This document shows, piece after piece, positions 5,427 to 17,201 of a stretch of DNA of 27,458 nt. This stretch comes from a virus (lineage: Duplodnaviria; Heunggongvirae; Uroviricota; Caudoviricetes): positions 1 through 27,458 of the IMG/VR virus record IMGVR_UViG_2703718852_000003, one strand, 5' to 3'. The notes below the pieces were generated by a model, which saw only the letters and a program-made list of their open reading frames with translations, was not told where the DNA came from and did no database searches. Positions within the stretch are counted from its first letter, which is position 1; every line of letters starts with the position of its first letter. Made by a program: the position numbers and the translations under genes.

Positions 5427-5789
5427 TTAATGACCTGCTGCGCGGAGTTTTCCGTCAGGTTCACCGGCAAGAGTCAGTAATTGTCCCTGGTCTTCCTGCA
5501 GAATAGTCAGGCGACCACCGCGATTGACATACATCGGCGTTTCGGTGGTGTCTTCTTCGGAAATTTTCCCGCGGTTAGTCGGGCGAACATATGAGAGTTT
5601 GTGTTTGATTTTCACACGGTTCTCATCAAATGGTTCGATTTCCAGGTTGAGTGAGACCTTACCTTTGGTTTTCGTGTTCATCACACCGGAAGCGACTTCA
5701 CTGAGAACTGCGCCGATTTTGGTTTCAAATACGCCGCCGTCCAGCTCCCCGATAAATGCCTGCACATCAGTACTGCGTTCGCTAGCCAT
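5427..5789 (-). CDS. YfdP-like small early protein
   Basis: Start placed at the internal ATG (MASERSTDV...) preceded by AGGAG; the 77-codon upstream extension in the ORF track is Cys/Pro-rich and overlaps strong RNA stem-loops, so it is probably leader, not coding. Confidence 0.55.
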   Translation of the reverse strand: MASERSTDVQAFIGELDGGVFETKIGAVLSEVASGVMNTKTKGKVSLNLEIEPFDENRVKIKHKLSYVRPTNRGKISEEDTTETPMYVNRGGRLTILQEDQGQLLTLAGEPDGKLRAAGH

Positions 5790-5837
5790 TTTGCTGCTCC
5801 TCATCATATCGACCCTGTAAGGTCGGTTAGTTTCTCC

Positions 5838-5972
5838 ACAAAACAGAGAAGAACACCTGCGGTGGCAGCCGCCCGGATGGATTGGGTTATGAGCCCGTCG
5901 TCCGGTGATGCTCTTCTCTGTTTTGTAAAAAGAGCGGTACCAGCCGGAAGCAAGGGTACAAACTGGTACCGC
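5838..5972 (-). repeat. Two adjacent strong inverted repeats in the leader of the leftward early operon: 15-bp perfect stem (5838-5852 with 5912-5926) and 10-bp perfect stem (5934-5943 with 5963-5972)
   Basis: Perfect reverse-complement arms read directly from the sequence; located in a roughly 700-bp GC-rich ORF-poor region between the operator sites and the first early-left gene. Confidence 0.5.
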
Positions 5973-6397
5973 CAAAGCAGTGGCTGTTGTGGTGGGGTTG
6001 TCACTCAGGCGTATGGTCAACCTGACAATCCGGTGTCCTCAACGGGGAAAGAGTAACCCCGCCATACTTACCGCCGCGCCATTTCGCGGATTACCACAAC
6101 GCTGAGAGCACTTAGCCAGTTACGGCACCACACTTTGTCGCGGCTCCATAAATGCCCTCATCGTTGCACCCTGGTCTCTTCCCAGGCGTCAAACCGAATC
6201 GCCACGCTGGTTAGGCGTCTTATCAGCATCATCATTGACTTGCACATTCCGGCTACCTGGTTTGTTTGCCCGAGCAAGGAGTGGATTGTCCCCTTTAACG
6301 TCCCCAGACCGCTAACGACGCATGTGCCATACGCCGTGTTACAACCAAATTTTGTTAGTACCTTGTTTGTTTGTCTGGAAAGAAAGATAAAATGAAG

Positions 6398-6436
6398 TTG
6401 CGCATTATGCAAGTGTTTTTGTTGCGAGATATGCAA
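6398..6436. promoter_or_regulatory. Putative leftward operator pair: TTGCGCATTATGCAA (6398-6412) and TTGCGAGATATGCAA (6422-6436)
   Basis: Same TTGCG-N-GCAA pattern recurs in the cI-cro intergenic region (TTGCGCGTTAAGCAA at 7205-7219); position fits an OL/pL region downstream of the cI terminator. Confidence 0.4.
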
Positions 6437-6450
6437 TTTAAAGGGTAATG

Positions 6451-6470
6451 AAAAGCCACCTTTGGGTGGC
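6451..6470 (-). terminator. Rho-independent terminator downstream of the repressor gene
   Basis: GCCACC-CAAA-GGTGGC hairpin followed by TTTT on the minus strand, about 20 bp after the cI stop. Confidence 0.5.
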
Positions 6471-6491
6471 TAATTGATGAGGAGGTAAGGG

Positions 6492-7184
6492 TTAATTGTG
6501 TCGCTTAAGGGTTTGTGACTGGCTGATTAAGACCTTTCCAAAGACCATAAACCGGTGTTCATTTTCGCTGGTAATTCCCCATTCACGGTAAATCTGGTTA
6601 TCAGAAATCACCAGTAGTTTGTCAGGTATCATTTGCAGTCGTTTGACATAAATTTTATCATCAAAACCAAATACATAGATACCATCTCCATCAAACTGAT
6701 TGATACTGACATCAACGAAGATGAGATCTCCTGGCTCAATGGTTGGACACATACTGTCCCCACGAACGTTGATAACTTTAATGTGATTGGCTGGCCGTCC
6801 GCCAAACATCGATACAGCATTATCAGTTCTGTATTCAATGGCATGAATCACATCAATGACATCACCGCCCTGGATAAGGCCATTTCCCGCACTGGCACTG
6901 ACATCCAGCATTTCAATACGGAATACATCCTTCACCTGCGCAACATCCTCACTAATACTGTTTTTACATACAGTATTACTTTTGACGTCTGAGGTAAAGA
7001 GATCAGCAATATCAACACCTAAGCTCCTGGCAATATTACTCAGGGCTTGTTCAGTGAATTGTTTCTGCTTACCTGTTTCCAGGCGTGAGATATTCGCCGC
7101 ATCCACTCCTATTGCTTCAGCGAGATCGGCGATTTTCATGTTCTTCGCCTGGCGAAGTTGTCTGACTCGGTTTCCTATGTTCAT
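6492..7184 (-). CDS. cI: CI-like prophage repressor (XRE-type helix-turn-helix plus S24 LexA-like self-cleaving peptidase domain)
   Basis: N-terminal helix-turn-helix (VRQLRQAKNMKIADLAEAIGVDAANISRLETGK); C-terminal S24 catalytic dyad GDSM ... KRL; divergent from a cro-like gene. Confidence 0.9.
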   Translation of the reverse strand: MNIGNRVRQLRQAKNMKIADLAEAIGVDAANISRLETGKQKQFTEQALSNIARSLGVDIADLFTSDVKSNTVCKNSISEDVAQVKDVFRIEMLDVSASAGNGLIQGGDVIDVIHAIEYRTDNAVSMFGGRPANHIKVINVRGDSMCPTIEPGDLIFVDVSINQFDGDGIYVFGFDDKIYVKRLQMIPDKLLVISDNQIYREWGITSENEHRFMVFGKVLISQSQTLKRHN

Positions 7185-7204
7185 GCGTTTATTACATTTC
7201 TTTA

Positions 7205-7267
7205 TTGCGCGTTAAGCAAATCAACTTGCGCAAAATATTTGCGTGAAATAATATGCTTATCACGCAA
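7205..7267. promoter_or_regulatory. Operator/promoter region between cI and cro: TTGCGCGTTAAGCAA, palindrome TTGCGCAA, and inverted repeat TTGCGTGA-N13-TCACGCAA
   Basis: Repeated TTGCG half-sites read from the sequence in the 97-bp divergent intergenic region. Confidence 0.45.
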
Positions 7268-7281
7268 TATGTGGAGGTTAT

Positions 7282-7542
7282 ATGCAATCACCATTACGGA
7301 ATGTGCGTAAGGCGCACGGATTTACTTTGCAGCATGTTGCTGCTGGCGTTCAGGTCAATCCAGCGACGCTGAGTCGTATTGAAAGACTGGAACAAATTCC
7401 ATCTATCGATCTTGCAGAACGTCTGGCCAATTTTTTTAAGGGTGAAATCAGCGAAATGCAGATTCTTTATCCGGCACGTTTTCAATCTAGCCAAAACCAG
7501 AATGGGTTTAAACCACAGGAACAGGAGGTAAGCCGTGGGTAA
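7282..7542 (+). CDS. cro: Cro-like helix-turn-helix regulator
   Basis: 86 aa, helix-turn-helix (FTLQHVAAGVQVNPATLSRIERLEQIPSIDLAERLA); first gene of the rightward operon, divergent from cI. Confidence 0.7.
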   Translation: MQSPLRNVRKAHGFTLQHVAAGVQVNPATLSRIERLEQIPSIDLAERLANFFKGEISEMQILYPARFQSSQNQNGFKPQEQEVSRG

Positions 7543-8092
7543 TCATCACTGGAAAGTGGAAAAACAGCCTGAGTGGTACGTGAAAGCTGTCAGAAAAACT
7601 ATCGCGGCGTTGCCGGGGGGTTACGCTGAAGCTGCTGAGTGGCTGGATGTAACAGAGAACGCATTATTTAACCGCCTTCGTGCCGATGGCGATCAGATTT
7701 TCCCGCTGGGATGGGCAATGATTTTACAACGTGCTGGTGGCACTCACTTCATTGCCGACGCTGTGGCGCAGTCTGCAAATGGCGTCTTTGTGTCTCTTCC
7801 TGACGTCGAGGATGTGGACAATGCCGATATTAACCAGCGTTTACTGGAAGTCATTGAACAGATCGGCAGTTATTCAAAACAGATTCGTTCGGCAATCGAA
7901 GACGGTGTAGTGGAACCGCATGAGAAGACAGCAATTAACGACGAGCTGTACCTCTCAATTTCGAAGCTGCAGGAGCATGCAGCACTTGTCTACAAAATTT
8001 TTTGCGTTTCAGAAAGTAATGACGCCCGCGAGTGTGCAGCTCCGGGCGTCGTGGCGTCGATTGCTTCTGGTTGTGGAGAAACTAACGCATGA
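7535..8092 (+). CDS. YmfL-like putative regulatory protein (cII-position gene, as in e14-type prophages)
   Basis: 185 aa, GTG start with AGGAGG ribosome-binding site; resemblance to YmfL is from memory. Confidence 0.55.
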
Positions 8093-8427
8093 ACAGTTTA
8101 ACAACACACTACCGTCGCTCGCAACTGATTGCGCTTCCTGTACCGGGTGGAAAAGCGAAGGTGGAGTATTGCTATGCAGTAAATGTACCAGGTGACAGGG
8201 AAATTGTAACCCACAGCTTTGCTGAGTGGGCTGTGGGGGATTTCAACCGGCAGAAGGAGACAGTCCTTTGCGACAAGTTAACCGCTGGTTCAAAGATCAC
8301 TACGGAGTGCCCGTCAGAGTCATTCGTTGGGAGCCGGAAACACAACGGGTTATCTACCTCCGTGAAGGCTATGAGCATGAGTGCTTCAGCCCGCTCGAAC
8401 AGTTTCGTCGTAAATTCAGGGAAATAG
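8089..8427 (+). CDS. YmfM-like hypothetical protein (reading frame uncertain in its 3' half)
   Basis: 112 aa ORF coupled to the upstream gene; its C-terminal third is Ser-rich and low-complexity, while an overlapping frame (8226..8447) looks more protein-like. Confidence 0.4.
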
Positions 8428-8436
8428 AGGTCGGTC

Positions 8437-9378
8437 ATGAGCACTAAATTAACCGGCTATGTATGGGATGGTTGCGCTGCGTCAGGCATGAAATTATCCA
8501 GCGTGGCAATTATGGCCCGCCTGGCTGATTTCAGTAATGACGAAGGTGTGTGCTGGCCATCAATTGAAACTATTGCCCGTCAGATTGGCGCGGGGATGAG
8601 TACCGTCAGAACGGCTATCGCACGGCTGGAAGCAGAAGGCTGGTTAACGCGTAAGGCGCGTCGCCAGGGTAACCGCAATGCGTCGAATGTTTATCAGCTT
8701 AACGTTGCGAAGCTTCAGGCAGCGGCATTTTCTCAACTGTCAGATTCTGACCCGTCAAAATCTGACGCATCAAAATCTGACACGTCAAAATTTGATGCGT
8801 CGAAATCTGGCAAAAAAGCGGGTTTTCACCCGTCAGAATCTGGCGGGGATCCGTCAGTAAAATCAAAACATGATCCGTCAGATAAAAAACCTTCTCGTCC
8901 GGACGCTTCGCAACCGGACACGCAGACGGCTGAACAGGATTTTTTAACTCGCCATCCTGATGCGGTTGTATTCAGCCCTAAAAAGCGCCAGTGGGGAACG
9001 CAGGATGATTTGACCTGCGCACAGTGGCTCTGGAAAAAAATCATTGCCCTGTACGAGCAGGCCGCCGAATGTGACGGCGAGGTGGTTCGTCCCAAAGAAC
9101 CGAACTGGACAGCCTGGGCAAACGAAATTCGCCTGATGTGTGTGCAGGATGGTCGTACTCACAAACAAATCTGCGAGATGTACAGCCGCGTCAGCCGCGA
9201 TCCGTTCTGGTGCCGTAACGTGCTCAGCCCGTCGAAGCTGCGGGAAAAATGGGATGAGCTTTCCCTGCGCTTATCGCCGTCCATCAGCACATACACAGAA
9301 AAACGCGAAGACCCGTATTTCAAATCCAGTTACGACAGCGTGGACTACAGCCAGATCCCGGCAGGATTCAGGGGGTGA
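8437..9378 (+). CDS. Replication initiator protein (O-like, N-terminal winged-helix DNA-binding domain) with an internal origin-like iteron array
   Basis: N-terminus (WPSIETIARQIGAGMSTVRTAIARLEAEGWL) typical of phage replication initiators; GAGG ribosome-binding site; Ser/Asp/Lys repeat linker encoded by DNA iterons, as for lambda ori inside O. Confidence 0.7.
   Translation: MSTKLTGYVWDGCAASGMKLSSVAIMARLADFSNDEGVCWPSIETIARQIGAGMSTVRTAIARLEAEGWLTRKARRQGNRNASNVYQLNVAKLQAAAFSQLSDSDPSKSDASKSDTSKFDASKSGKKAGFHPSESGGDPSVKSKHDPSDKKPSRPDASQPDTQTAEQDFLTRHPDAVVFSPKKRQWGTQDDLTCAQWLWKKIIALYEQAAECDGEVVRPKEPNWTAWANEIRLMCVQDGRTHKQICEMYSRVSRDPFWCRNVLSPSKLREKWDELSLRLSPSISTYTEKREDPYFKSSYDSVDYSQIPAGFRG
8739..8860. 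repeat. Iteron-like direct repeats with 15-bp period (CGTCAAAATCTGAC and variants, four tandem copies plus degenerate copies), preceded by palindrome GTCAGATTCTGAC; putative origin
   Basis: Tandem copies at 8752, 8767, 8782, 8797 and further copies at about 8830 and 8852, read directly from the sequence. Confidence 0.5.
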
Positions 9379-9380
9379 GC

Positions 9381-9710
9381 ATGAGTCTTTTGAATGAAGT
9401 TCAGAAATTCATTGAAGCCCATCCGGGCTGTACTTCCGGAGACATTGCGGATGCTTTTGCAGGTTACTCACGGCAGCGCGTTCTGCAGTCAGCAAGCAAG
9501 TTACGTCAGAGTGGGCGTGTGGCTCACCGTTGTGAAGGGGATACACGCAGACATTTCCCGCGCCTGACTGAGAGAGCGCAGGAGCCGGAACCACAACCAG
9601 TTCGTGAAACCAGACCTGTGCGCAATTTCTATGTCGGCACTAACGATTCCCGGGTGATTTTGTGCCTGACTCGCCAGGCGGAAAAACTGGTCAGGGAGAT
9701 GGCGGCATGA
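9381..9710 (+). CDS. Hypothetical protein
   Basis: ATG with GGGGG ribosome-binding site, overlapping the stop of the initiator gene; stop overlaps the next start (ATGA). Confidence 0.5.
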   Translation: MSLLNEVQKFIEAHPGCTSGDIADAFAGYSRQRVLQSASKLRQSGRVAHRCEGDTRRHFPRLTERAQEPEPQPVRETRPVRNFYVGTNDSRVILCLTRQAEKLVREMAA

Positions 9711-10033
9711 CGACGTTAACTCAATGCCAGCAGCAGGTGCTGGATATGCTGATTTCTTACCAGAAAGAACGTGGCTTCCCGCCAACCAATCAGGAGGTGG
9801 CAACCATGCTGGGATACCGTTCAGTGAATGCAGCGGTGGAGCATCTTCGCGCACTGGAGAAAAAAGGCGTCATCACGATAAAGCGTGGCGTGGCCCGGGG
9901 GATCACGCTTCATACCGCAGTGAAGGACGACGACAGCGAAGCGGTCGGTATCATCCGCGCACTGCTTGCCGGTGAGGAGAACGCTAGGTTGCGTGCAGCC
10001 CACTGGTTACATGAGAGGGGCCTGAAAGTATGA
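9707..10033 (+). CDS. LexA N-terminal DNA-binding-domain homolog lacking the S24 peptidase domain
   Basis: LTQCQQQVLDMLISYQKERGFPPTNQEVATMLGYRSVNAAVEHLRALEKKGVITIKRGVARGITL aligns along its length with the LexA winged-helix domain; protein ends after about 108 aa. Confidence 0.65.
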   Translation: MTTLTQCQQQVLDMLISYQKERGFPPTNQEVATMLGYRSVNAAVEHLRALEKKGVITIKRGVARGITLHTAVKDDDSEAVGIIRALLAGEENARLRAAHWLHERGLKV

Positions 10034-10419
10034 AGTTGATCCTTCCTTTCCCGCCCAGTGTGAACACGTACTGGCGACACCCCAACAAAGGGGCATTTGC
10101 TGGTAAGAGCCTGATAAGCGAGGCGGGGCGAAAATTTCAGAGCGCGGCGTGCGCAGCAATAGTTGAGCAGTTACGTCGTCTGCCGAAACCAACGTCGGCA
10201 CCTGCTTCAGTGGAGATCGTGTTGTTTCCTCCGGATAACCGGATCCGCGATCTGGACAACTATAACAAGGCTCTGTTTGACGCCCTGACCCACGCGGGTG
10301 TGTGGGAAGACGACAGACAGGTGAAAAGAATGCTGGTGGAGTGGGGACCGGTTATCCCGAAAGGGAAGGTCGAGATCACTATCAGTAAGTATGAGAAACC
10401 GGCGGGTGCAGCCGCCTGA
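10030..10419 (+). CDS. rusA: RusA-family Holliday junction resolvase
   Basis: 129 aa; conserved acidic motif IRDLDNYNKALFDALTHAGVWEDD typical of RusA. Confidence 0.85.
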   Translation: MKLILPFPPSVNTYWRHPNKGAFAGKSLISEAGRKFQSAACAAIVEQLRRLPKPTSAPASVEIVLFPPDNRIRDLDNYNKALFDALTHAGVWEDDRQVKRMLVEWGPVIPKGKVEITISKYEKPAGAAA

Positions 10420-10438
10420 TTAAGAGGAGAAACGAAGT

Positions 10439-11248
10439 ATGAATAATCTGATGGTCATTGATGGTATTGAAGTTCATCGTGATGCTTATGGGCGTTACAG
10501 CCTGAACGATCTGCATCGCGCAGCAGTAGCATCTGGTGCAAATGCCAGAACCAAGGAGCCAGGAAAGTTTCTTTCCAGCCAACAAACTGTTGAGCTTGTT
10601 CATGAATTGACCAACACCCAGAATTTGGGTGTTGACCCGGTGAGTGTGATTCATGGGGGAAATGAACGGGGAACGTATGTCTGCAAGGAACTGGTGTATG
10701 CCTATGCAATGTGGATCAGCCCGTCATTCCATCTGAAGGTGATCCGTACTTTCGACATGGTAACCAGCGCACCGGAAAAATTATCCGGACAGGCTGCTGA
10801 CAAGATGCAGGCTGGTGTGATTCTGCTGGACTTTATGCGCCGGGAATTAAACCTGTCTAACTCTTCAGTGCTTGGTGCCTGTCAGAAACTCCAGGAGGCT
10901 GTTGGCTTACCGAATCTGGCACCGCGCTATGCCATTGATGCTCCTGCTGACGCGCCTGATGGCTCAAGCCGCCCCACGCTGTCGCTGAGTGCACTGCTGA
11001 AACAGTATGGTATCCGCCTGACGGCTAATCAGGCATATCACCAGATGGCGAAGCTGGGGATCGTTGAACAACGCGAACGATACAGCCGTACCGCGATTAA
11101 CAACATCAAAAAATTCTGGTCGCTGACAGCGAAAGGCTGCATGTTCGGCAAGAACATCACCAGTCCCGCAAATCCGCGCGAGACGCAGCCGCATTTCTTC
11201 GAATCCCGATTCCCTGAGCTGTTAAAGCTGCTCGATACCGTTCATTGA
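10439..11248 (+). CDS. KilA-N domain protein (anti-repressor-like)
   Basis: N-terminal KilA-N pattern (IDGIEVHRDAYGRYSLNDLHRAAVASG); strong AGGAG ribosome-binding site. Confidence 0.7.
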   Translation: MNNLMVIDGIEVHRDAYGRYSLNDLHRAAVASGANARTKEPGKFLSSQQTVELVHELTNTQNLGVDPVSVIHGGNERGTYVCKELVYAYAMWISPSFHLKVIRTFDMVTSAPEKLSGQAADKMQAGVILLDFMRRELNLSNSSVLGACQKLQEAVGLPNLAPRYAIDAPADAPDGSSRPTLSLSALLKQYGIRLTANQAYHQMAKLGIVEQRERYSRTAINNIKKFWSLTAKGCMFGKNITSPANPRETQPHFFESRFPELLKLLDTVH

Positions 11249-11249
11249 G

Positions 11250-12245
11250 GTGACCGTGAGAGCACTACTGACCCCTGAAATTGCCCCGCGTATGGGGATC
11301 GTATTGTTCAGGCCCGGTTCAGAGCTGATGCCCCTGTTTATGCAGGGGCGTGTCCTGCTGGAGCCTGAGCCGGAGCATTATTCATCTTTCGCCAGTGGTG
11401 CCGTTCCCGCGGCGTCACAACCGCTGGCGGATGATCCTGCCGTTTGGGCCGTGTTCCGCAATGAGGCAGTGATCCGTCGTGCTGGTGGCGTGGAATGTCT
11501 TGAAAGCTGGTTACTTCGTGAAAAAGGCTGCCAGTGGCCTCATTCCGACTGGCACAGCGAGAACATGACCACAATGCGACACGCTCCGGGTGCAATCCGT
11601 CTGTGCTGGCACTGCGATAACCAGCTGCGCGATCAGTTCACGGAACGGCTGGAATCAATGGCAACGGATAACTGTGCCCGCTGGGTGTTGTCTGTTGTGC
11701 GTCGGGATCTCGGTTTTGATGACAGTCACGTTGTGACAATGCCGGAACTGTGCTGGTGGCTGATTCGTAATGACCTGGCGGATGCCTTACCGGAAAGTGC
11801 AGCCCGTAAGGCACTGAGATTACCGAAGCCTGTTGTGCCGTCTGTCACCCGGGAAAGTGACCTTGTGCCTTCGGTTCCTGCTACCAGCATCATCCAGGAT
11901 AAGGCGAAAAAGGTGCTGGCGCTGAAAGTGGATCCGGAGTCGCCGGAGTCTTTTATGTTACGCCCAAAACGTCGCCGCTGGGTTAATGAAAAGTACACGC
12001 GCTGGGTTAAGACACAGCCGTGTGCATGTTGTGGAAAGCCTGCTGATGATCCCCACCACCTGATAGGTCACGGTCAGGGTGGAATGGGTACAAAAGCGCA
12101 TGACCTCTTTGTGTTGCCTTTGTGCAGAAAGCATCACGACGAGCTGCATGCAGATACCGTGGCATTTGAAGAGATGTATGGCTCCCAGCTGGAGCTGATA
12201 TTTCGTTTTATCGATCGTGCGCTGGCAATTGGCGTGCTGGCCTGA
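11250..12245 (+). CDS. DUF968-like protein with C-terminal Cys/His (HNH-like) motif
   Basis: C-terminal PCACCGKPADDPHHLIGHGQGGMGTKAHDLFVLPLCRKHHDELH; exact start uncertain (GTG at 11250 or 11256). Confidence 0.55.
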   Translation: MTVRALLTPEIAPRMGIVLFRPGSELMPLFMQGRVLLEPEPEHYSSFASGAVPAASQPLADDPAVWAVFRNEAVIRRAGGVECLESWLLREKGCQWPHSDWHSENMTTMRHAPGAIRLCWHCDNQLRDQFTERLESMATDNCARWVLSVVRRDLGFDDSHVVTMPELCWWLIRNDLADALPESAARKALRLPKPVVPSVTRESDLVPSVPATSIIQDKAKKVLALKVDPESPESFMLRPKRRRWVNEKYTRWVKTQPCACCGKPADDPHHLIGHGQGGMGTKAHDLFVLPLCRKHHDELHADTVAFEEMYGSQLELIFRFIDRALAIGVLA

Positions 12246-12262
12246 TTTTGTGGAGAAAGTTG

Positions 12263-12616
12263 ATGCGTGATATGTATGAAGTTTTGGACCGCTGGGGGGC
12301 ATGGGCTGCTGCAGAAAACAGTGGTGTGGACTGGCAACCGGTAGCTGCTGGCTTCAAGCGGCTTTTACCTCATGGCAGAAAGTCCCGGATTCAGTGCGAT
12401 GATGATGAGGGCATCATAATAGACGGTTGTGTCGCTAGGTTGCGTAAATACAAGCCGGCAGAGTATGAGCTGATAATTGCTCACTTTGTTGTTGGCATTT
12501 CGCTCCGTACAATTGCAAAGAAGCGGAAATGTTCAGACGGAACAGTTCGAAAAGATATGCAAACAGCTATGGGGTTTATTGATGGATGCTTGTCATTTTT
12601 TTATTTAATACAATGA
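12263..12616 (+). CDS. Q: Late antiterminator Q (phage 21/82-type)
   Basis: MRDMYEVLDRWGAWAAAENSGVDWQPVAAGFKRLLP ... matches the remembered Q-type N-terminus; start at the ATG with GGAG ribosome-binding site; lies upstream of the lysis cassette. Confidence 0.75.
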   Translation: MRDMYEVLDRWGAWAAAENSGVDWQPVAAGFKRLLPHGRKSRIQCDDDEGIIIDGCVARLRKYKPAEYELIIAHFVVGISLRTIAKKRKCSDGTVRKDMQTAMGFIDGCLSFFYLIQ

Positions 12617-12639
12617 GTTAAGTGCTATGTAAAATCATT

Positions 12640-12670
12640 CTACTTTCCCAACTTTTATGTGTATATAATA
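12640..12670 (+). promoter_or_regulatory. Promoter-like element (TATAAT at 12664-12669) just downstream of Q; candidate late promoter PR'
   Basis: Good -10 hexamer, weak -35; position equivalent to PR' in lambdoid phages. Weak evidence. Confidence 0.25.
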
Positions 12671-12695
12671 CCAGGGTAAAGTAACGGAGAATCTT

Positions 12696-13736
12696 GTGAA
12701 CATTCAAGCAGTAGACATTTTTTGTGGCGCAGGGGGCTTAACTTTTGGGCTAAAAAAAGCCGGGATTGAAGTTTCTCATGGCATTGATATTGATGAGTCC
12801 TGCCGTTTCGCTATTGAGAGCAATAATCCCTTAACGAAGTTCATTAACCAGTCAGTTACTGAACTGCAATCCAGCGATGTGTCTGCTATGTTCAAGGAAG
12901 GAAATATTAGATTACTTGCAGGCTGTGCCCCTTGCCAACCGTTTTCCAAGTATCGTAATCCAAATAGCAGAAAAGATGATACAAAGTGGCGTCTTTTATC
13001 TGAGTTTCAGAGGATTGTAAGTGATGTCATGCCAGAGCTTGTGACTATGGAAAATGTTCCTCAACTTAGAAATCATAAGGTTTTTGAAGAGTTTGTTAGT
13101 GTATTAAAGACTCTTGGGTATCATCTGTGGTACGACGTTGTAAAATGTTCCGAGTATGGCTTGCCTCAAAATAGACGTAGATTAATTCTAATTGGGTCCA
13201 TATTGGGGCCAATCAGCCTTGATCAAAAAAAAGTAAGCCGTAAAGTTACAGTAAAGGATGCTATTGGTCAGTTGCCAAAAATAGGTGCAGGGGAGAAACT
13301 CGAAAGTGATCCATTGCATCGTTCGCCTAAATTAAGGGATATTAACCTTAAACGAATCTTGCACTCTTTACCAGGTGGTACGTGGGATGATTGGCCTGAA
13401 GAAATTAGAGCGGATTGCCATAAAAAGCATTCAGGTGCTACCTATAAAAGTGTTTATGGACGGATGGTTTGGGACGATACTAGTCCTACAATAACTACCC
13501 AATGTTATGGATATGGTAATGGGCGATTCGGACATCCTGAGCAAAATAGAGCAATAACTTTGCGTGAAGCTGCTATTTTACAATCTTTTCCTATGGATTA
13601 TAAATTTATTGGAAAAAATACGCCTTTTTCATTCCAAAAGTTAGGAACGATGATTGGTAATGCTGTTCCCCCTATAATTGGCCAAGTAATAGGGAGAACG
13701 TTTGTTAGGCATGTTGAGGGGATAAATATCCGTTAG
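12696..13736 (+). CDS. DNA (cytosine-5)-methyltransferase
   Basis: Motif I FCGAGG, motif IV catalytic PCQPFS, motif VI ENV, motif VIII QNRRR; GTG start with GGAGA ribosome-binding site; AT-rich. Confidence 0.9.
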   Translation: MNIQAVDIFCGAGGLTFGLKKAGIEVSHGIDIDESCRFAIESNNPLTKFINQSVTELQSSDVSAMFKEGNIRLLAGCAPCQPFSKYRNPNSRKDDTKWRLLSEFQRIVSDVMPELVTMENVPQLRNHKVFEEFVSVLKTLGYHLWYDVVKCSEYGLPQNRRRLILIGSILGPISLDQKKVSRKVTVKDAIGQLPKIGAGEKLESDPLHRSPKLRDINLKRILHSLPGGTWDDWPEEIRADCHKKHSGATYKSVYGRMVWDDTSPTITTQCYGYGNGRFGHPEQNRAITLREAAILQSFPMDYKFIGKNTPFSFQKLGTMIGNAVPPIIGQVIGRTFVRHVEGINIR

Positions 13737-14394
13737 AGATAATATAATCTTCAGTTGAGTTTATTAATAAACGAAGATATAGATCAACTCTCTCTGCTCT
13801 AGACTTAACTTCTTCTAAGGGGTCAATTTGCCCCTTTTTAGAGAAGCTAGTACTTCCATGCGCGAGTTCGTTTCTGATATCCTTAAGCAAGTCTAAGTCA
13901 ATACCATTTCTACATTCAGGTGAGTTTGCGATAGTTATTCCGTAAGCCTGCGTTATTTTGTGTAATACAGGCTTGCAAACATTACCATTGAATTCTTTAC
14001 GAATATTCAATGAGGCTGAAATTATTCTTTTGGAAATGTCAGTGCCTATCTTTTTATAAAGGGATTGCCCTGTTTCATTATCTGAAACAATTCTATGTAA
14101 TATATTTACTTGAAGCTTCTCCCTGAGTGATGCGTAATTCACCTCATTATCTTGTAAATGATCATAAATTGACTCGATGCAACCTCTGGCAGTATTTTCA
14201 ACTTGATTATATAGCATCATATGAACGGATGATTTTAAAATATTTACCCTTAGGATATTAGATTCTATTTCATCTTGATGCGCTTGCGGATCTAACTGCT
14301 GAGTATGAATCTCTATAGATGATGCAAGAGAAAGCAGTTCCATAATGTCTCTTGCTCTTTCTTCATATTCATCTCGTAAATCAATTAGACTCAT
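13705..14394 (-). CDS. HEPN-like protein (R-x4-HG motif), second gene of the DUF262 operon
   Basis: C-terminal IRNELAHG fits the HEPN R-x4-6-H motif; start 3 nt after the DUF262 stop; 3' end overlaps the convergent methyltransferase by 32 bp. Family assignment by eye only. Confidence 0.5.
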   Translation of the reverse strand: MSLIDLRDEYEERARDIMELLSLASSIEIHTQQLDPQAHQDEIESNILRVNILKSSVHMMLYNQVENTARGCIESIYDHLQDNEVNYASLREKLQVNILHRIVSDNETGQSLYKKIGTDISKRIISASLNIRKEFNGNVCKPVLHKITQAYGITIANSPECRNGIDLDLLKDIRNELAHGSTSFSKKGQIDPLEEVKSRAERVDLYLRLLINSTEDYIISNGYLSPQHA

Positions 14395-14396
14395 TT

Positions 14397-15557
14397 TTAA
14401 ATCCCTAACAACTTATTTTTAACGTAAAAGATTCTGTTTTTTAGCTGGCTGGTATTGTTTGCACTATCAGCAGTAACAAGTGTTTCAAATTCCTCTTCAA
14501 ATAGCCATTCACCTACAGGTACGGCTGGACTCTGGAGTTGTGGGTTAGTTTTTAATGCAAGTGCAGTTCCCACGGCAATGGCTTCGTATCTGGCTCGTGG
14601 GGTGGTTTTACTTGTTGCGGTCTTTTTAAAGCCAATAGGGAAATGGGTAGCAACAAAAGCAAGCATCATTTCAAAATCATGTTTAAAATTATCAACATCT
14701 TGTTGAGTAGTCACAGCTGCTGCTTGTTCATTTAAATAATTATCAATAAAGGGACGGACAAATCCCTTATAGTTTTCTAAATCATTTAAATATGCAAAAA
14801 ATCTCAAAACTAACTCACGATGATCGCCATTCGACCGTTTCCGGTCTGATAATGGAGCTAGTTGGGAAAAAAGTGAGTTTGTTGAGCATGGGGTCACAAC
14901 ATCTTTATAGAACATTGAGGTAGCAGCATCTGAGCCATGCCTCACTTCCATCGCTTCTAATCTTTTAACACCTGAGTTGATCCTTTCAAATAAATCTCTT
15001 CTATGTTGTTCCTCAACATCACCTTTCAACTCAATAAATCTTAGTGAAGCTCTTAAAAATCTTCTTTGGCGGCTAGCTAAAAGATCTGAAAATTTGAAAC
15101 CTTCTAAACTTTTAAGCTCTTTCAAATCCTTTAACTCAAATTGATCGTTCCAAAAATAATAAATAGAGCGTATCCGTTGTGAACCATCAATGATTTCTAC
15201 CCTACCATCTAATTCAGGGTCTTCATTAAATACATCAGCAATGTAAAGGTAAGGTATTGGAAAGTCTAATAGAATACTTTCTATAAAGCGAGAGGCTGTT
15301 TTTGTATCCCACTTGTAATCACGTTGATAATCTGGAATAAAAAGCTCGTTTTTGTCATTTTCAATATTATCACCATACTTTTGAATAATGACTTCAACGG
15401 TCCACTCACGTACATTGTATCCAATGTTTCTCTGAGCGAGTCTGATTTCATTGTCAGCGGAAGCGGTTAAAGCTGCAATTTCAGCCTTTTTTCTGTTCTT
15501 AGCGTGTTCATCTTGTATCTGAGCAAGCTCTTCTTTGAGTTCTTTGAGTGTAGTCAT
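14397..15557 (-). CDS. DUF262 (GmrS / ParB-like NTPase) domain protein
   Basis: Hallmark motifs FIPDYQRDYKWD and EIIDGSQR (DGQQR box); AAGGAA ribosome-binding site; AT-rich. Confidence 0.8.
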   Translation of the reverse strand: MTTLKELKEELAQIQDEHAKNRKKAEIAALTASADNEIRLAQRNIGYNVREWTVEVIIQKYGDNIENDKNELFIPDYQRDYKWDTKTASRFIESILLDFPIPYLYIADVFNEDPELDGRVEIIDGSQRIRSIYYFWNDQFELKDLKELKSLEGFKFSDLLASRQRRFLRASLRFIELKGDVEEQHRRDLFERINSGVKRLEAMEVRHGSDAATSMFYKDVVTPCSTNSLFSQLAPLSDRKRSNGDHRELVLRFFAYLNDLENYKGFVRPFIDNYLNEQAAAVTTQQDVDNFKHDFEMMLAFVATHFPIGFKKTATSKTTPRARYEAIAVGTALALKTNPQLQSPAVPVGEWLFEEEFETLVTADSANNTSQLKNRIFYVKNKLLGI

Positions 15558-15657
15558 GTTTTCGTTCCTTTAATTGAAAGTTGATTGTAAGAAAACTATA
15601 ACGCGTACGCAAAAAGTATTGTATTGTGTTAAGAGTGGTTACTTCGCCACACAACTT

Positions 15658-15682
15658 AAACCCGCCGTCGAGCGGGTTTTTT
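15658..15682 (+). terminator. Rho-independent terminator-like hairpin
   Basis: AAACCCGC-CGTCGA-GCGGGTTT followed by TTTTTTG on the plus strand. Confidence 0.5.
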
Positions 15683-15804
15683 GTACCTGTAAACCTGGTG
15701 CAGTACGGTAAACACGCTGGTGGTCGTGAATACTGACTTTTTATCTTGCTGGCTTTTTAGACAAGAGTTATTGGTATGTCATGTTAACCAGAAGGAAAAA
15801 AGAC

Positions 15805-15999
15805 ATGCTAAAACAGCAAGATATGACAGAAACGGCGAAAGTTGTTTTTAATGAATTAAGCATCGAACCGGCAACAGTCGGGGAGATTGCACAAAACACA
15901 TATCTTTCACGCGAACGCTGTCAGTTAATACTGACCCAGTTGGTTATGGCGGGGCTGGCAGATTACCAGTTCGGCTGTTACAGACGCCTTCAGCAATGA
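15805..15999 (+). CDS. Small hypothetical protein, possible winged-helix regulator
   Basis: ATG with GAAGGA ribosome-binding site; helix-turn-helix-like segment ATVGEIAQNTYLSRERCQLILTQL; divergent from the DUF262 operon. Confidence 0.4.
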   Translation: MLKQQDMTETAKVVFNELSIEPATVGEIAQNTYLSRERCQLILTQLVMAGLADYQFGCYRRLQQ

Positions 16000-16148: not shown

Positions 16149-17201
16149 ATGAAAAATACTGTAAAAATAAACAGTGTTGATTTAATCAACGCTGATTGCC
16201 TGCATTTTATTCAGTCCCTGCCTGATGATTCCATTGACCTGATTGTTACCGATCCGCCTTACTTCAAGGTGAAACCCAACGGTTGGGACAATCAGTGGAA
16301 AGGGGACGAAGATTACCTTAAGTGGCTGGACCACTGTCTGGCCCAGTTCTGGCGGGTGTTGAAACCTGCCGGAAGCCTTTACCTGTTCTGTGGGCATCGC
16401 CTGGCATCTGATATTGAGATCATGATGCGTGAACGTTTCAACGTGCTTAACCATATCATCTGGGCGAAGCCGTCCGGACGTTGGAATGGGTGTAATAAAG
16501 AAAGTCTGCGCGCATATTTTCCTGCCACAGAGCGCGTTCTGTTTGCTGAACATTACCAGGGGCCATATCGCGGCAAAAGTGACGGCTATGCGGCAAAAGA
16601 AAGGGAACTCAAACAGCACATAATGGCACCGCTGATATCGTATTTCAGGGATGCTCGTGCCGAACTGGGTATAACGGCAAAACAAATTGCCGAAGCCACA
16701 GGTAAGAAAAATATGGTTTCCCACTGGTTTGGTGCCAGTCAGTGGCAGTTGCCGAATGAGGCTGACTATCGGAAGTTACAGGCACTGTTTTCCCGTATAG
16801 CGGCAGAGAAGTTTCAGGAACAACAACTGGAACAACCACACCACCAGCTGGTGGCATCTTATGATTCACTGAATCGCAAATATTCTGAATTGCTGGATGA
16901 GTTTAAATCTCTCCGGCGCTATTTCTCCGTATCAGTCTCCGTGCCTTATACCGATGTCTGGATGCATAAACCCGTTCAGTTCTACCCGGGTAAACATCCG
17001 TGTGAGAAACCGGCGGATATGCTCAGGCAAATAATCAATGCCAGTAGTCGACCTGGTGATCTGGTTGCTGATTTTTTTATGGGATCCGGTTCCACAATAA
17101 AAGCAGCAATGGCGCTGGGGCGTCGGGCCTTAGGTGTTGAGCTTGAGTCAGAGCGGTTTAACCAGACAGTGAAAGAGATAAACGAGCTGGTGGGGAAATA
17201 A
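16149..17201 (+). CDS. DNA amino-methyltransferase (N6-adenine or N4-cytosine, beta class)
   Basis: Motif IV DPPY near the N-terminus and motif I FFMGSGST near the C-terminus. Confidence 0.8.

Follow-up and report, generated by a model that had tools for sequence, protein, structure and literature searches.

What holds together three AT-rich genes that sit just downstream of the Q gene of a lambdoid prophage, one of them encoding a C5-cytosine DNA methyltransferase (methylase) and the other two, facing it from the opposite strand, a DUF262 protein and a small protein of the HEPN kind? The genes lie in a stretch of 27,458 nucleotides of viral DNA (IMG/VR record IMGVR_UViG_2703718852_000003), the whole of which is called the window here, and a first-pass annotation made from the letters alone had put them forward as a candidate restriction-like defence module that had not been described before. 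The answer reached here is that the trio is a mobile, methylation-coupled defence cassette, carried by the prophage as a moron, and for this overall reading confidence and doubt are about evenly balanced. The sequence bore out the open reading frames (ORFs), the motifs quoted for them, the 32-bp overlap and the AT-rich composition that had been claimed, the cassette (12617-15660) having a GC content of 0.37, with 0.53 in the left flank and 0.475 in the right. The genes at the centre of the question are the following.

12696..13736, plus strand: C5-cytosine DNA methyltransferase, 346 amino acids, GTG start (PF00145), co-directional with Q and the late genes
13705..13736: overlap of 32 bp where the methylase and HEPN genes meet tail to tail at their 3' ends
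13705..14394, minus strand: HEPN protein of the MAE_28990 family, 229 amino acids, predicted ribonuclease (RNase) effector (PF18737, PF18735)
14397..15557, minus strand: DUF262 (ParB-like NTPase) protein, 386 amino acids (PF03235)

The two minus-strand genes had been called an operon and they are one, lying on the same strand with a gap of 2 nucleotides between the DUF262 stop and the HEPN start, which suggests that the translation of the two is coupled. From the strand layout it follows that the methylase runs with Q and the late genes and that the effector operon is transcribed against them.

Co-inheritance and spread of the three genes

The co-occurrence of the genes across genomes had been named as the key test of a common module, and it turned out to be very strong. 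Among 5426 complete genomes of Escherichia coli, in which the DUF262-HEPN pair and the methylase were searched for separately, the pair was found in 107 and the methylase in 107, at 108 places, with the alleles splitting 34 and 73 for both; neither a pair without the methylase nor a methylase without the pair was found in this set. Of complete E. coli genomes about 2% carry the cassette, one allele occurring in ST131 records among others. The prophage that holds the second allele is also lambdoid but is not the same one, its replication module being different, and there too the genes come straight after Q.

A scan at the level of species, in which each species was represented by one genome, 80 loci were retained out of 162 confirmed relatives and hidden Markov models were built for scoring, carried the survey much further afield. 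Of the 65 informative loci, 44 have a C5-methylase adjoining the pair; it is convergent in 40 of them, and in the other 4 it shares the strand of the pair, lying upstream in 3 and downstream in 1. The methylase is present in all 34 informative loci outside the Cyanobacteria, as it is in all 63 informative viral loci from IMG/VR. In both the species-level and the viral loci the HEPN gene stands immediately 3' of the DUF262 gene wherever the DNA suffices (L075 is an exception, and L087 a decayed copy), with a spacing of 1-10 nucleotides in the gene calls, and the convergent packing of methylase and HEPN is kept as well, the gap lying between -104 and +39 bp in most loci and reaching +282 and +414 bp in two outliers. 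In the decaying copy, which belongs to Okeania (L087, 4977-6328), the DUF262 gene is in two ORFs and HEPN is truncated.

The methylases adjoining the pair in other genomes are 46-94% identical to the window enzyme, and the orthology extends from Enterobacteria to Cyanobacteria at 46-67% identity. Pairwise divergence is correlated between DUF262 and HEPN (r = 0.87) and between DUF262 and methylase (r = 0.55), with HEPN the fastest-evolving of the trio at 29% mean pairwise identity. At three loci (L015, L034 and L038), two of which have a different gene order, the usual enzyme is replaced by a non-orthologous C5-methylase of 28-30% identity, and no other observation argues as strongly as this replacement that the system would need cytosine methylation as such and not that one gene. 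Two C5-methylase genes were seen in tandem at L021 (2162-4304), while at L034 (3773-8919) they lie upstream and downstream of the pair, both of them non-orthologous to the usual partner.

In the more distant homologues the geometry is the same, with the methylase converging on the DUF262-HEPN pair, and their carriers are as follows.

Yersinia lambdoid prophage, between Q and holin: DUF262, HEPN and convergent methylase
Salmonella bongori prophage: DUF262, HEPN and convergent methylase
Vibrio, integrase island: DUF262, HEPN and convergent methylase
Pseudomonas, adjoining McrBC: DUF262, HEPN and convergent methylase
Pseudoalteromonas (L003), 5695-14675: trio adjoining Tn7-like TnsB/C/D/E homologues, apparently as transposon cargo
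L011, 2324-12508: trio inside a Type I restriction-modification operon, in the order hsdM, hsdS, trio, hsdR, an 'embedded defence' arrangement
Klebsiella plasmid: trio
P2-like phage: trio
Moraxella phage Mcat25: trio

The three genes are a conserved and horizontally mobile unit, and their co-occurrence supports the earlier proposal that they form one module resembling a restriction-modification system. Since the cassette is always on or beside mobile elements, and restriction-modification systems are known to behave as addiction modules, its part could also be one of addiction or stabilisation, with the HEPN toxin triggered as methylation decays after loss of the cassette and the mobile element thereby kept in the population. 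The contexts are, however, typical of defence (beside McrBC, nested in a Type I system, in a P2-like phage), stable chromosomal copies exist without the methylase, and the closest relative is PD-T4-2, a validated anti-phage system of E. coli, so that an addiction role is considered very improbable.

The three proteins

The call of a C5-methyltransferase with all canonical motifs held up well. The protein matches PF00145 over its full length (E 2.7e-54) and TIGR00675 above the cut-off, and it carries motifs I (FCGAGG), IV (PCQ), VI (ENV), VIII (QNRRR), IX (REAAILQSFP) and X (GNAVPP), the cysteine of PCQ (Cys80) being the predicted catalytic residue. In PADLOC its matches are MTase_II (E 1e-88) and DrmMII (E 8e-85). 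Residues 221-300, the target-recognition region, are conserved at least as strongly as the catalytic core, suggesting that the methylase has a single fixed specificity. An identification with Dcm (CCWGG) was not adopted, as the Dcm model scores just 17.7 bits, and the nearest solved structures are the catalytic cores of DNMT1 and M.HaeIII, from which no specificity can be assigned. As to membership in a Type II restriction-modification system, the methyltransferase part has its complete catalytic motifs, and for the endonuclease part there is one weak PADLOC match to REase_II (E 7e-4), with no PD-(D/E)XK, HNH, GIY-YIG or PLD nuclease domain found in the cassette proteins.

Profile searches agreed with both of the domains that had been proposed for the minus-strand proteins. 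The 386-residue protein matches PF03235 (DUF262/GmrSD_N) with an E value of 5.8e-26 and carries the motifs FIPDYQRDYKWD (residues 73-84) and DGSQR (124-128); a long helix (1-65) is followed by the DUF262 domain (about 66-206) and by a helical DNA-binding domain (about 215-384) like the ParBDB/GmrSD-middle domain described for NsnA, GmrSD and SspE, from which the naming is taken (PMC12065111). Invariant in 85 of 85 homologues are PDYQR (75-79), W83, DG[ST]QR (124-128), R130, R192, N194, E248 and R252. An AlphaFold model (pLDDT 80) has a ParB-like domain and then an all-helical C-terminal domain at 215-384, and the best solved folds for it are BrxU (7p9k, probability 0.99) and SspE. The C-terminal 150 amino acids, which had been singled out for checking, are on this model a helical DNA-binding domain of the ParBDB/GmrSD-middle type and not a nuclease. 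The DUF1524 His-Me finger nuclease, a partner that the first-pass annotation had found missing, is absent by both Pfam and structure search, with no Pfam match beyond PF03235 in a protein that stops at residue 386. The best PADLOC match is NsnA (E 5.9e-45), followed by PD-T4-2_A (E 4.6e-27); the PHROGs entry reads 'unknown function' and the name given by NCBI PGAP is 'DUF262 domain-containing protein'.

It is at this protein that a different division of labour has to be weighed, in which the DUF262 protein would itself be a DNase acting on unmethylated DNA and HEPN a suicide RNase that the complex keeps inactive as a fail-safe, to be released only when a phage neutralises restriction, after the model of PrrC and EcoprrI. 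The comparative survey of Anantharaman, Makarova, Burroughs, Koonin and Aravind in 2013 used the term 'ParB nuclease' for the DUF262-type partner and reasoned along such lines for HEPN proteins linked to restriction-modification (PMC3710099), the DUF262 proteins give weak matches to PDLC03418, a PADLOC model of Type II restriction endonucleases (E 7e-4 to 6e-12), and the strict linkage to a methylase would fit equally well. In the characterised DUF262-DUF1524 enzymes, however, it is the DUF1524 His-Me finger that cuts DNA, with DUF262 as NTPase and sensor (PMC10952713, PMC12065111), and the window protein has neither DUF1524 nor any other nuclease domain, and this division of labour is accordingly held to be unlikely.

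The 229-residue protein matches PF18737 (HEPN_MAE_28990; E 2.9e-17, 64 bits, cut-off 26.8) and PF18735 (RiboL-PSP-HEPN; E 1.4e-7, 32 bits, cut-off 28.4). The motif IRNELAHG had been placed at its very end; the motif is there, but it occupies residues 173-180, in the C-terminal quarter, with R174 and H179 forming the Rx4H signature. These two residues do not vary in any of the 74 HEPN homologues, nor do E66 and G137, and the protein is a predicted RNase effector with R174 and H179 as its predicted catalytic residues. The AlphaFold model is all-helical and of moderate quality (pLDDT 68), and a fold search with it returned generic helical bundles alone, at E > 0.1; since that search was uninformative, the HEPN call rests on the Pfam matches and the invariant Rx4H. 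Among PADLOC models there is nothing beyond RTasHEPN at E 0.019, and three related HEPN partners had no match there. The protein falls in PHROGs phrog_3846 ('unknown function'), and NCBI PGAP names it 'MAE_28990/MAE_18760 family HEPN-like nuclease'. Some E. coli records (P0011, P0012 and P0016) have a HEPN of 192 amino acids that is 97-98% identical and covers 84%, which may reflect either another choice of start codon or a truncated N-terminus.

Pairs without an intact adjacent methylase

The case for a methylation-coupled cassette has to be set against several copies and relatives that do without a methylase of their own, and the cases given in this paragraph and the next weigh against it. 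The largest group comprises about 21 species, all of them Cyanobacteria, in which the pair is intact with all catalytic residues and no C5-methylase is adjacent (L047, L056-L060, L063, L067, L072-L073, L076-L085, L089 and L091-L092). On a neighbour-joining tree these fall into one derived clade, with Nostoc, Okeania, Microcoleus, Scytonema and other genera, and two scattered cases, and their derived position implies that the trio is ancestral. Around them lie genes of the housekeeping kind, among them those for aconitase B, ClpB, an S49 peptidase, a CHAD protein and an ABC1 kinase. Aconitase B lies upstream in L059 and several other loci have an untyped upstream ORF of similar size (869-896 amino acids), while at one locus an N6/N4 methylase stands in the place of the C5 enzyme.

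On the E. coli IncFIA plasmid pVE155 (L094, NZ_AP018354.1, 2828-4528) there is a shorter pair, made up of a DUF262 protein of 353 amino acids and a MAE_28990 HEPN of 211, with no methylase homologue within 4 kb, and conjugative IncF plasmids, in Salmonella as well as in E. coli, carry pairs of this type. In Peduovirus P24B2 (P2_4B2; L093, NC_049387.1, 1994-3041) the pair is intact and the orthologous methylase has a single frameshift near residue 227, which may reflect an error of sequencing, a true loss of function or phase variation; in a related viral contig (L149) the methylase is intact. PD-T4-2 for its part was cloned and is active in E. coli K-12 without a methylase (PMC9519451), and the characterised DUF262 proteins GmrSD, BrxU and SspE all respond to modified and not to unmodified DNA.

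The effector pair can therefore persist without its own methylase, and, given the cyanobacterial and IncF pairs and PD-T4-2, a strict dependence of the one on the other is not proven. These cases fit a methylation-coupled cassette only if a resident methylase marks the DNA in trans, for example the Dcm of E. coli or the solitary methylases of Cyanobacteria. All the mobile copies in viral contigs keep the methylase, and the copies without it are mostly chromosomally fixed cyanobacterial genes; such a pattern is to be expected if a mobile element cannot rely on the methylation of its host, in which case the gene would be kept on mobile copies and dropped from fixed ones.

The same observations bear on the second of two readings that the first-pass annotation had left side by side, namely that the methylase either belongs to the system or is an unrelated anti-restriction moron. 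In the latter, two independent modules would be travelling together, a Type IV-like exclusion system made of DUF262 and HEPN and a methylase that protects the mobile element from host restriction. PD-T4-2 acts without a methylase on T4, a phage with modified cytosines, and the known DUF262 proteins sense modified DNA; the pairs in Cyanobacteria and on the IncF plasmid stay intact without the methylase, and orphan methylases are common in this prophage slot, one example being the N6 methylase at 16149-17201 in the window. It is difficult, however, to reconcile independence with the occurrence of the methylase at every one of the 63 viral and 34 non-cyanobacterial loci and with identical distributions in E. 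coli, or with the 3' overlap, the co-divergence of the same orthologue across phyla and carriers and the non-orthologous replacement at three loci, and a system set off by modified cytosine would, with a cytosine methylase always beside it, run the risk of attacking its own host. Of the two, a methylase that is part of the system is clearly favoured, because it is orthologous and co-inherited across phyla and types of mobile element and because, at three loci, a non-orthologous C5-methylase stands in for it, and the chance that the modules are independent is put rather low.

Survival of the pair after loss or frameshift of the methylase, with no death of the host, would also be accounted for if the methyl mark were not a shield but a positional or activating cue for DUF262, as phosphorothioate is for SspE, a licence of the Ssp kind, in which case loss of the methylase would abolish defence and cause no autoimmunity. 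In SspABCD-SspE a modification module is indeed accompanied by a DUF262 protein, and the self mark stimulates the NTPase of that protein (PMC10952713). The pairs without a methylase nonetheless keep all their catalytic residues over many species, suggesting that they continue to function, and PD-T4-2 is active with no cognate methylase, though the Dcm of K-12 might substitute for one, and licensing is regarded as improbable.

A possible mechanism

On the reading of the trio as a defence cassette in which methylation protects, the C5-methyltransferase would mark the DNA of the cell and the prophage at one fixed sequence. The DUF262 protein would read the modification state of DNA by way of a switch driven by nucleoside triphosphate (NTP), as in SspE, GmrSD and BrxU, and the MAE_28990 HEPN RNase, translationally coupled to it, would be the effector. 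When the sensor meets unmarked DNA, such as that of an incoming phage, the NTP-driven switch would free HEPN, which would then cut RNA and halt the infection, with growth arrest as the probable price. This would amount to a pair like PD-T4-2 that has its own modification gene, and so a restriction-modification logic with an RNase replacing the restriction endonuclease. The data show what the genes encode, the invariance of the active sites, the tight operon, the joint inheritance of the trio and its mobility. We infer unmarked DNA as the trigger, RNA as the target and a complex of the two minus-strand proteins, and there are precedents in the activity of PD-T4-2 against T4 (PMC9519451), the SspE sensor with its modification module (PMC10952713), PrrC under the control of a restriction-modification system (PMC3710099) and, further, DARNA, a HEPN tRNase activated by DNA.

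The more particular proposition, that self and non-self are read on DNA by the DUF262 NTPase and the attack is made on RNA by HEPN, in a cassette of about 3 kb that is swapped among phages, plasmids and Tn7-like transposons, is advanced tentatively, with a little more doubt than belief. If true, it would explain both the action of PD-T4-2 and the loss of the methylase from fixed cyanobacterial copies. PD-T4-2 and other DUF262 systems lacking DUF1524 have no known mechanism, and the cassette offers a natural handle on them, since a conserved methylase of apparently fixed specificity that is attached to a sensor-effector pair makes the readout of DUF262 testable by classical host-controlled modification. 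If the model holds, the cassette would clearly exemplify an epigenetic self mark gating an abortive response aimed at RNA, a hybrid of DNA mark and RNA attack that comparative genomics predicted in 2013. Current PADLOC models miss the cassette, and inventories of defence systems and host-range predictions for phage therapy consequently overlook it.

The setting in the prophage

The flanks of the three genes and the edge of the slot that they occupy have the following features.

12248..12616: Q gene (PF06530, E 5e-46)
12617..12695, plus strand: intergenic region of 79 bp from Q to the methylase, with a perfect -10 hexamer TATAAT at 12664-12669, a GGAG ribosome-binding site at 12686-12689 and then the GTG start
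15558..15660, minus strand: upstream region of the DUF262-HEPN operon, with its promoter expected inside
15661..15683, plus strand: GC-rich hairpin CCCGC-N6-GCGGG with T6 after it, where the moron slot has its right edge, from sequence and folding energy

The TATAAT hexamer may serve as the promoter of the methylase gene, with a weak -35. For the operon on the other strand, a consensus scan gave no convincing sigma-70 match in 15558..15660, and over the sequence as a whole the scan found 13 promoter-like sites where 10.8 are expected in shuffled sequence and missed the TATAAT at 12664-12669. The hairpin was likewise missed by a consensus scan for terminators; its folding energy is -13.8 kcal/mol on the plus strand and -15.2 on the minus strand, the runs of A and T at its flanks make it terminator-like on both strands, and in phage Ayreon the homologous site is annotated 'terminator'. 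Homology with lambdoid phages that are free of the cassette starts at about 15592-15659.

The first-pass annotation had placed three genes between Q and the lysis cassette, which is right for the trio and leaves out two more genes (15781..15999 and 16149..17201) that come before the holin and endolysin region, which extends from 17206 onward. The first is an ORF of 72 amino acids with weak winged-helix similarity, and the second encodes an N6/N4 DNA methylase (PF01555, E 2e-42; PADLOC MTase_II, E 3e-152), so that the prophage has two DNA methylases in the interval from Q to lysis. Phage Ayreon has the same order of ORF, methylase and holin with the cassette absent, from which it follows that these two genes belong to the lambdoid backbone. 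Directly 5' of Q are genes for a KilA-N protein (10439-11248) and a DUF968 protein with a weak HNH-like match (11250-12245), both typical lambdoid accessory genes.

Relation to known systems

The claim that the module was undescribed did not survive. In 2013 Anantharaman and colleagues catalogued a neighbourhood of MAE_28990 HEPN, ParB and DNA methylase and, by analogy with PrrC and EcoprrI, took HEPN RNases linked to restriction-modification as a second line of defence (PMC3710099). The window has a MAE_28990 HEPN with Rx4-6H and, adjacent to it, the genes for DUF262 and a DNA methylase, and its trio is the same; the entry itself is one line under a generic hypothesis of restriction-modification plus HEPN and offers neither a name nor a gene order, and nothing on distribution, mobility or experiment. 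The HEPN family also bears the name given to it by NCBI PGAP, and the architecture of the pair is that of PD-T4-2 (PMC9519451). No paper naming or testing the methylase-linked trio was found in a literature search that was thin on subscription journals and so is no proof, and a search by the RefSeq accessions of the trio and by the accession and name of PF18737, with the same limit, found no paper besides the 2013 survey. Two recent preprints, one of 2024 on 'embedded defences' (HEC-05/06/08) and one of 2026 on DARNA (PD-T7-3), were considered and neither covers the trio.

PD-T4-2, listed as 'DUF262, HEPN', comes from E. coli ECOR65 (RCO39066.1, contig QOYX01000002), and Vassallo et al. in 2022 showed that from a plasmid it protects K-12 against T4 and that its deletion sensitises ECOR65 (PMC9519451). 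It was compared with the window through PADLOC models and the published HHsearch tables. Both are two-gene operons of DUF262 and then a HEPN of the RiboL-PSP/MAE_28990 clade, with the same two Pfam families, PD-T4-2B reaching 97.8% for PF18735 and 96.9% for PF18737 in HHsearch (PMC9519451 tables). The window DUF262 protein scores 93 bits against PD-T4-2_A (profile 52-322 of 363) and 152 bits against NsnA, a homology at the level of the family and not a close one, and the PD-T4-2_B model has no match among the window proteins at E <= 0.1 in PADLOC. The systems also differ in size, with ORFs of 1540 bp in PD-T4-2 and 1853 bp in the window and a B protein of about 165 amino acids where that of the window has 229. 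The pVE155 pair is like PD-T4-2 in its layout, a pair without a methylase, but by the PADLOC models it is not PD-T4-2.

The DUF262 protein shares with SspE of SspABCD-SspE, GmrSD and BrxU a DUF262 NTPase-sensor followed by a helical DNA-binding middle domain, and SspABCD-SspE is alike also in that a DUF262 protein is paired with a module for modification of self (PMC10952713). In those systems a DUF1524 His-Me nuclease is fused, whereas in the window there is a separate HEPN protein; the modification in Ssp is phosphorothioation, not C5-methylation, and GmrSD and BrxU have no cognate modification gene. An assignment as a Type IV enzyme of the GmrSD/BrxU type was set aside, for the DUF262 domain has its DGxQR but DUF1524 is absent. 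Menshen (NsnABC) was rejected in the same way; the NsnA match is strong (E 5.9e-45, 11-302 of 385), and the ParB-DUF262 and ParBDB architecture of NsnA is shared, but the NsnB ATPase and the NsnC inPIN-nuclease are absent, and the window has HEPN downstream and a linked methylase. In reviews PD-T4-2, Dazbog and Menshen are grouped as DUF262 systems that lack DUF1524 and for which no mechanism is known.

PrrC is alike in that a HEPN RNase is tied functionally to a restriction-modification system (PMC3710099), and differs in being a fusion of ABC-ATPase and HEPN inside a Type I system. PD-lambda-5 ('compacted RM+Abi') likewise has a ParB-like protein and a methyltransferase in a prophage; PD-lambda-5A, however, matches ParBc only weakly and shows no convincing HEPN, and PD-lambda-5 models are absent among the best 25 of 62 PADLOC matches of the methylase. 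In DARNA (PD-T7-3) a DNA-binding domain turns on a HEPN tRNase during infection, but DARNA consists of one protein whose C-terminal domain is unrelated; it is triggered by single-stranded DNA bound to the single-stranded DNA-binding protein of the phage, and has neither DUF262 nor methylase. Placed among these systems, the cassette is a methylase-linked variant of the DUF262-HEPN kind to which PD-T4-2 belongs, catalogued in 2013, still unnamed and with a HEPN protein that has no PADLOC model.

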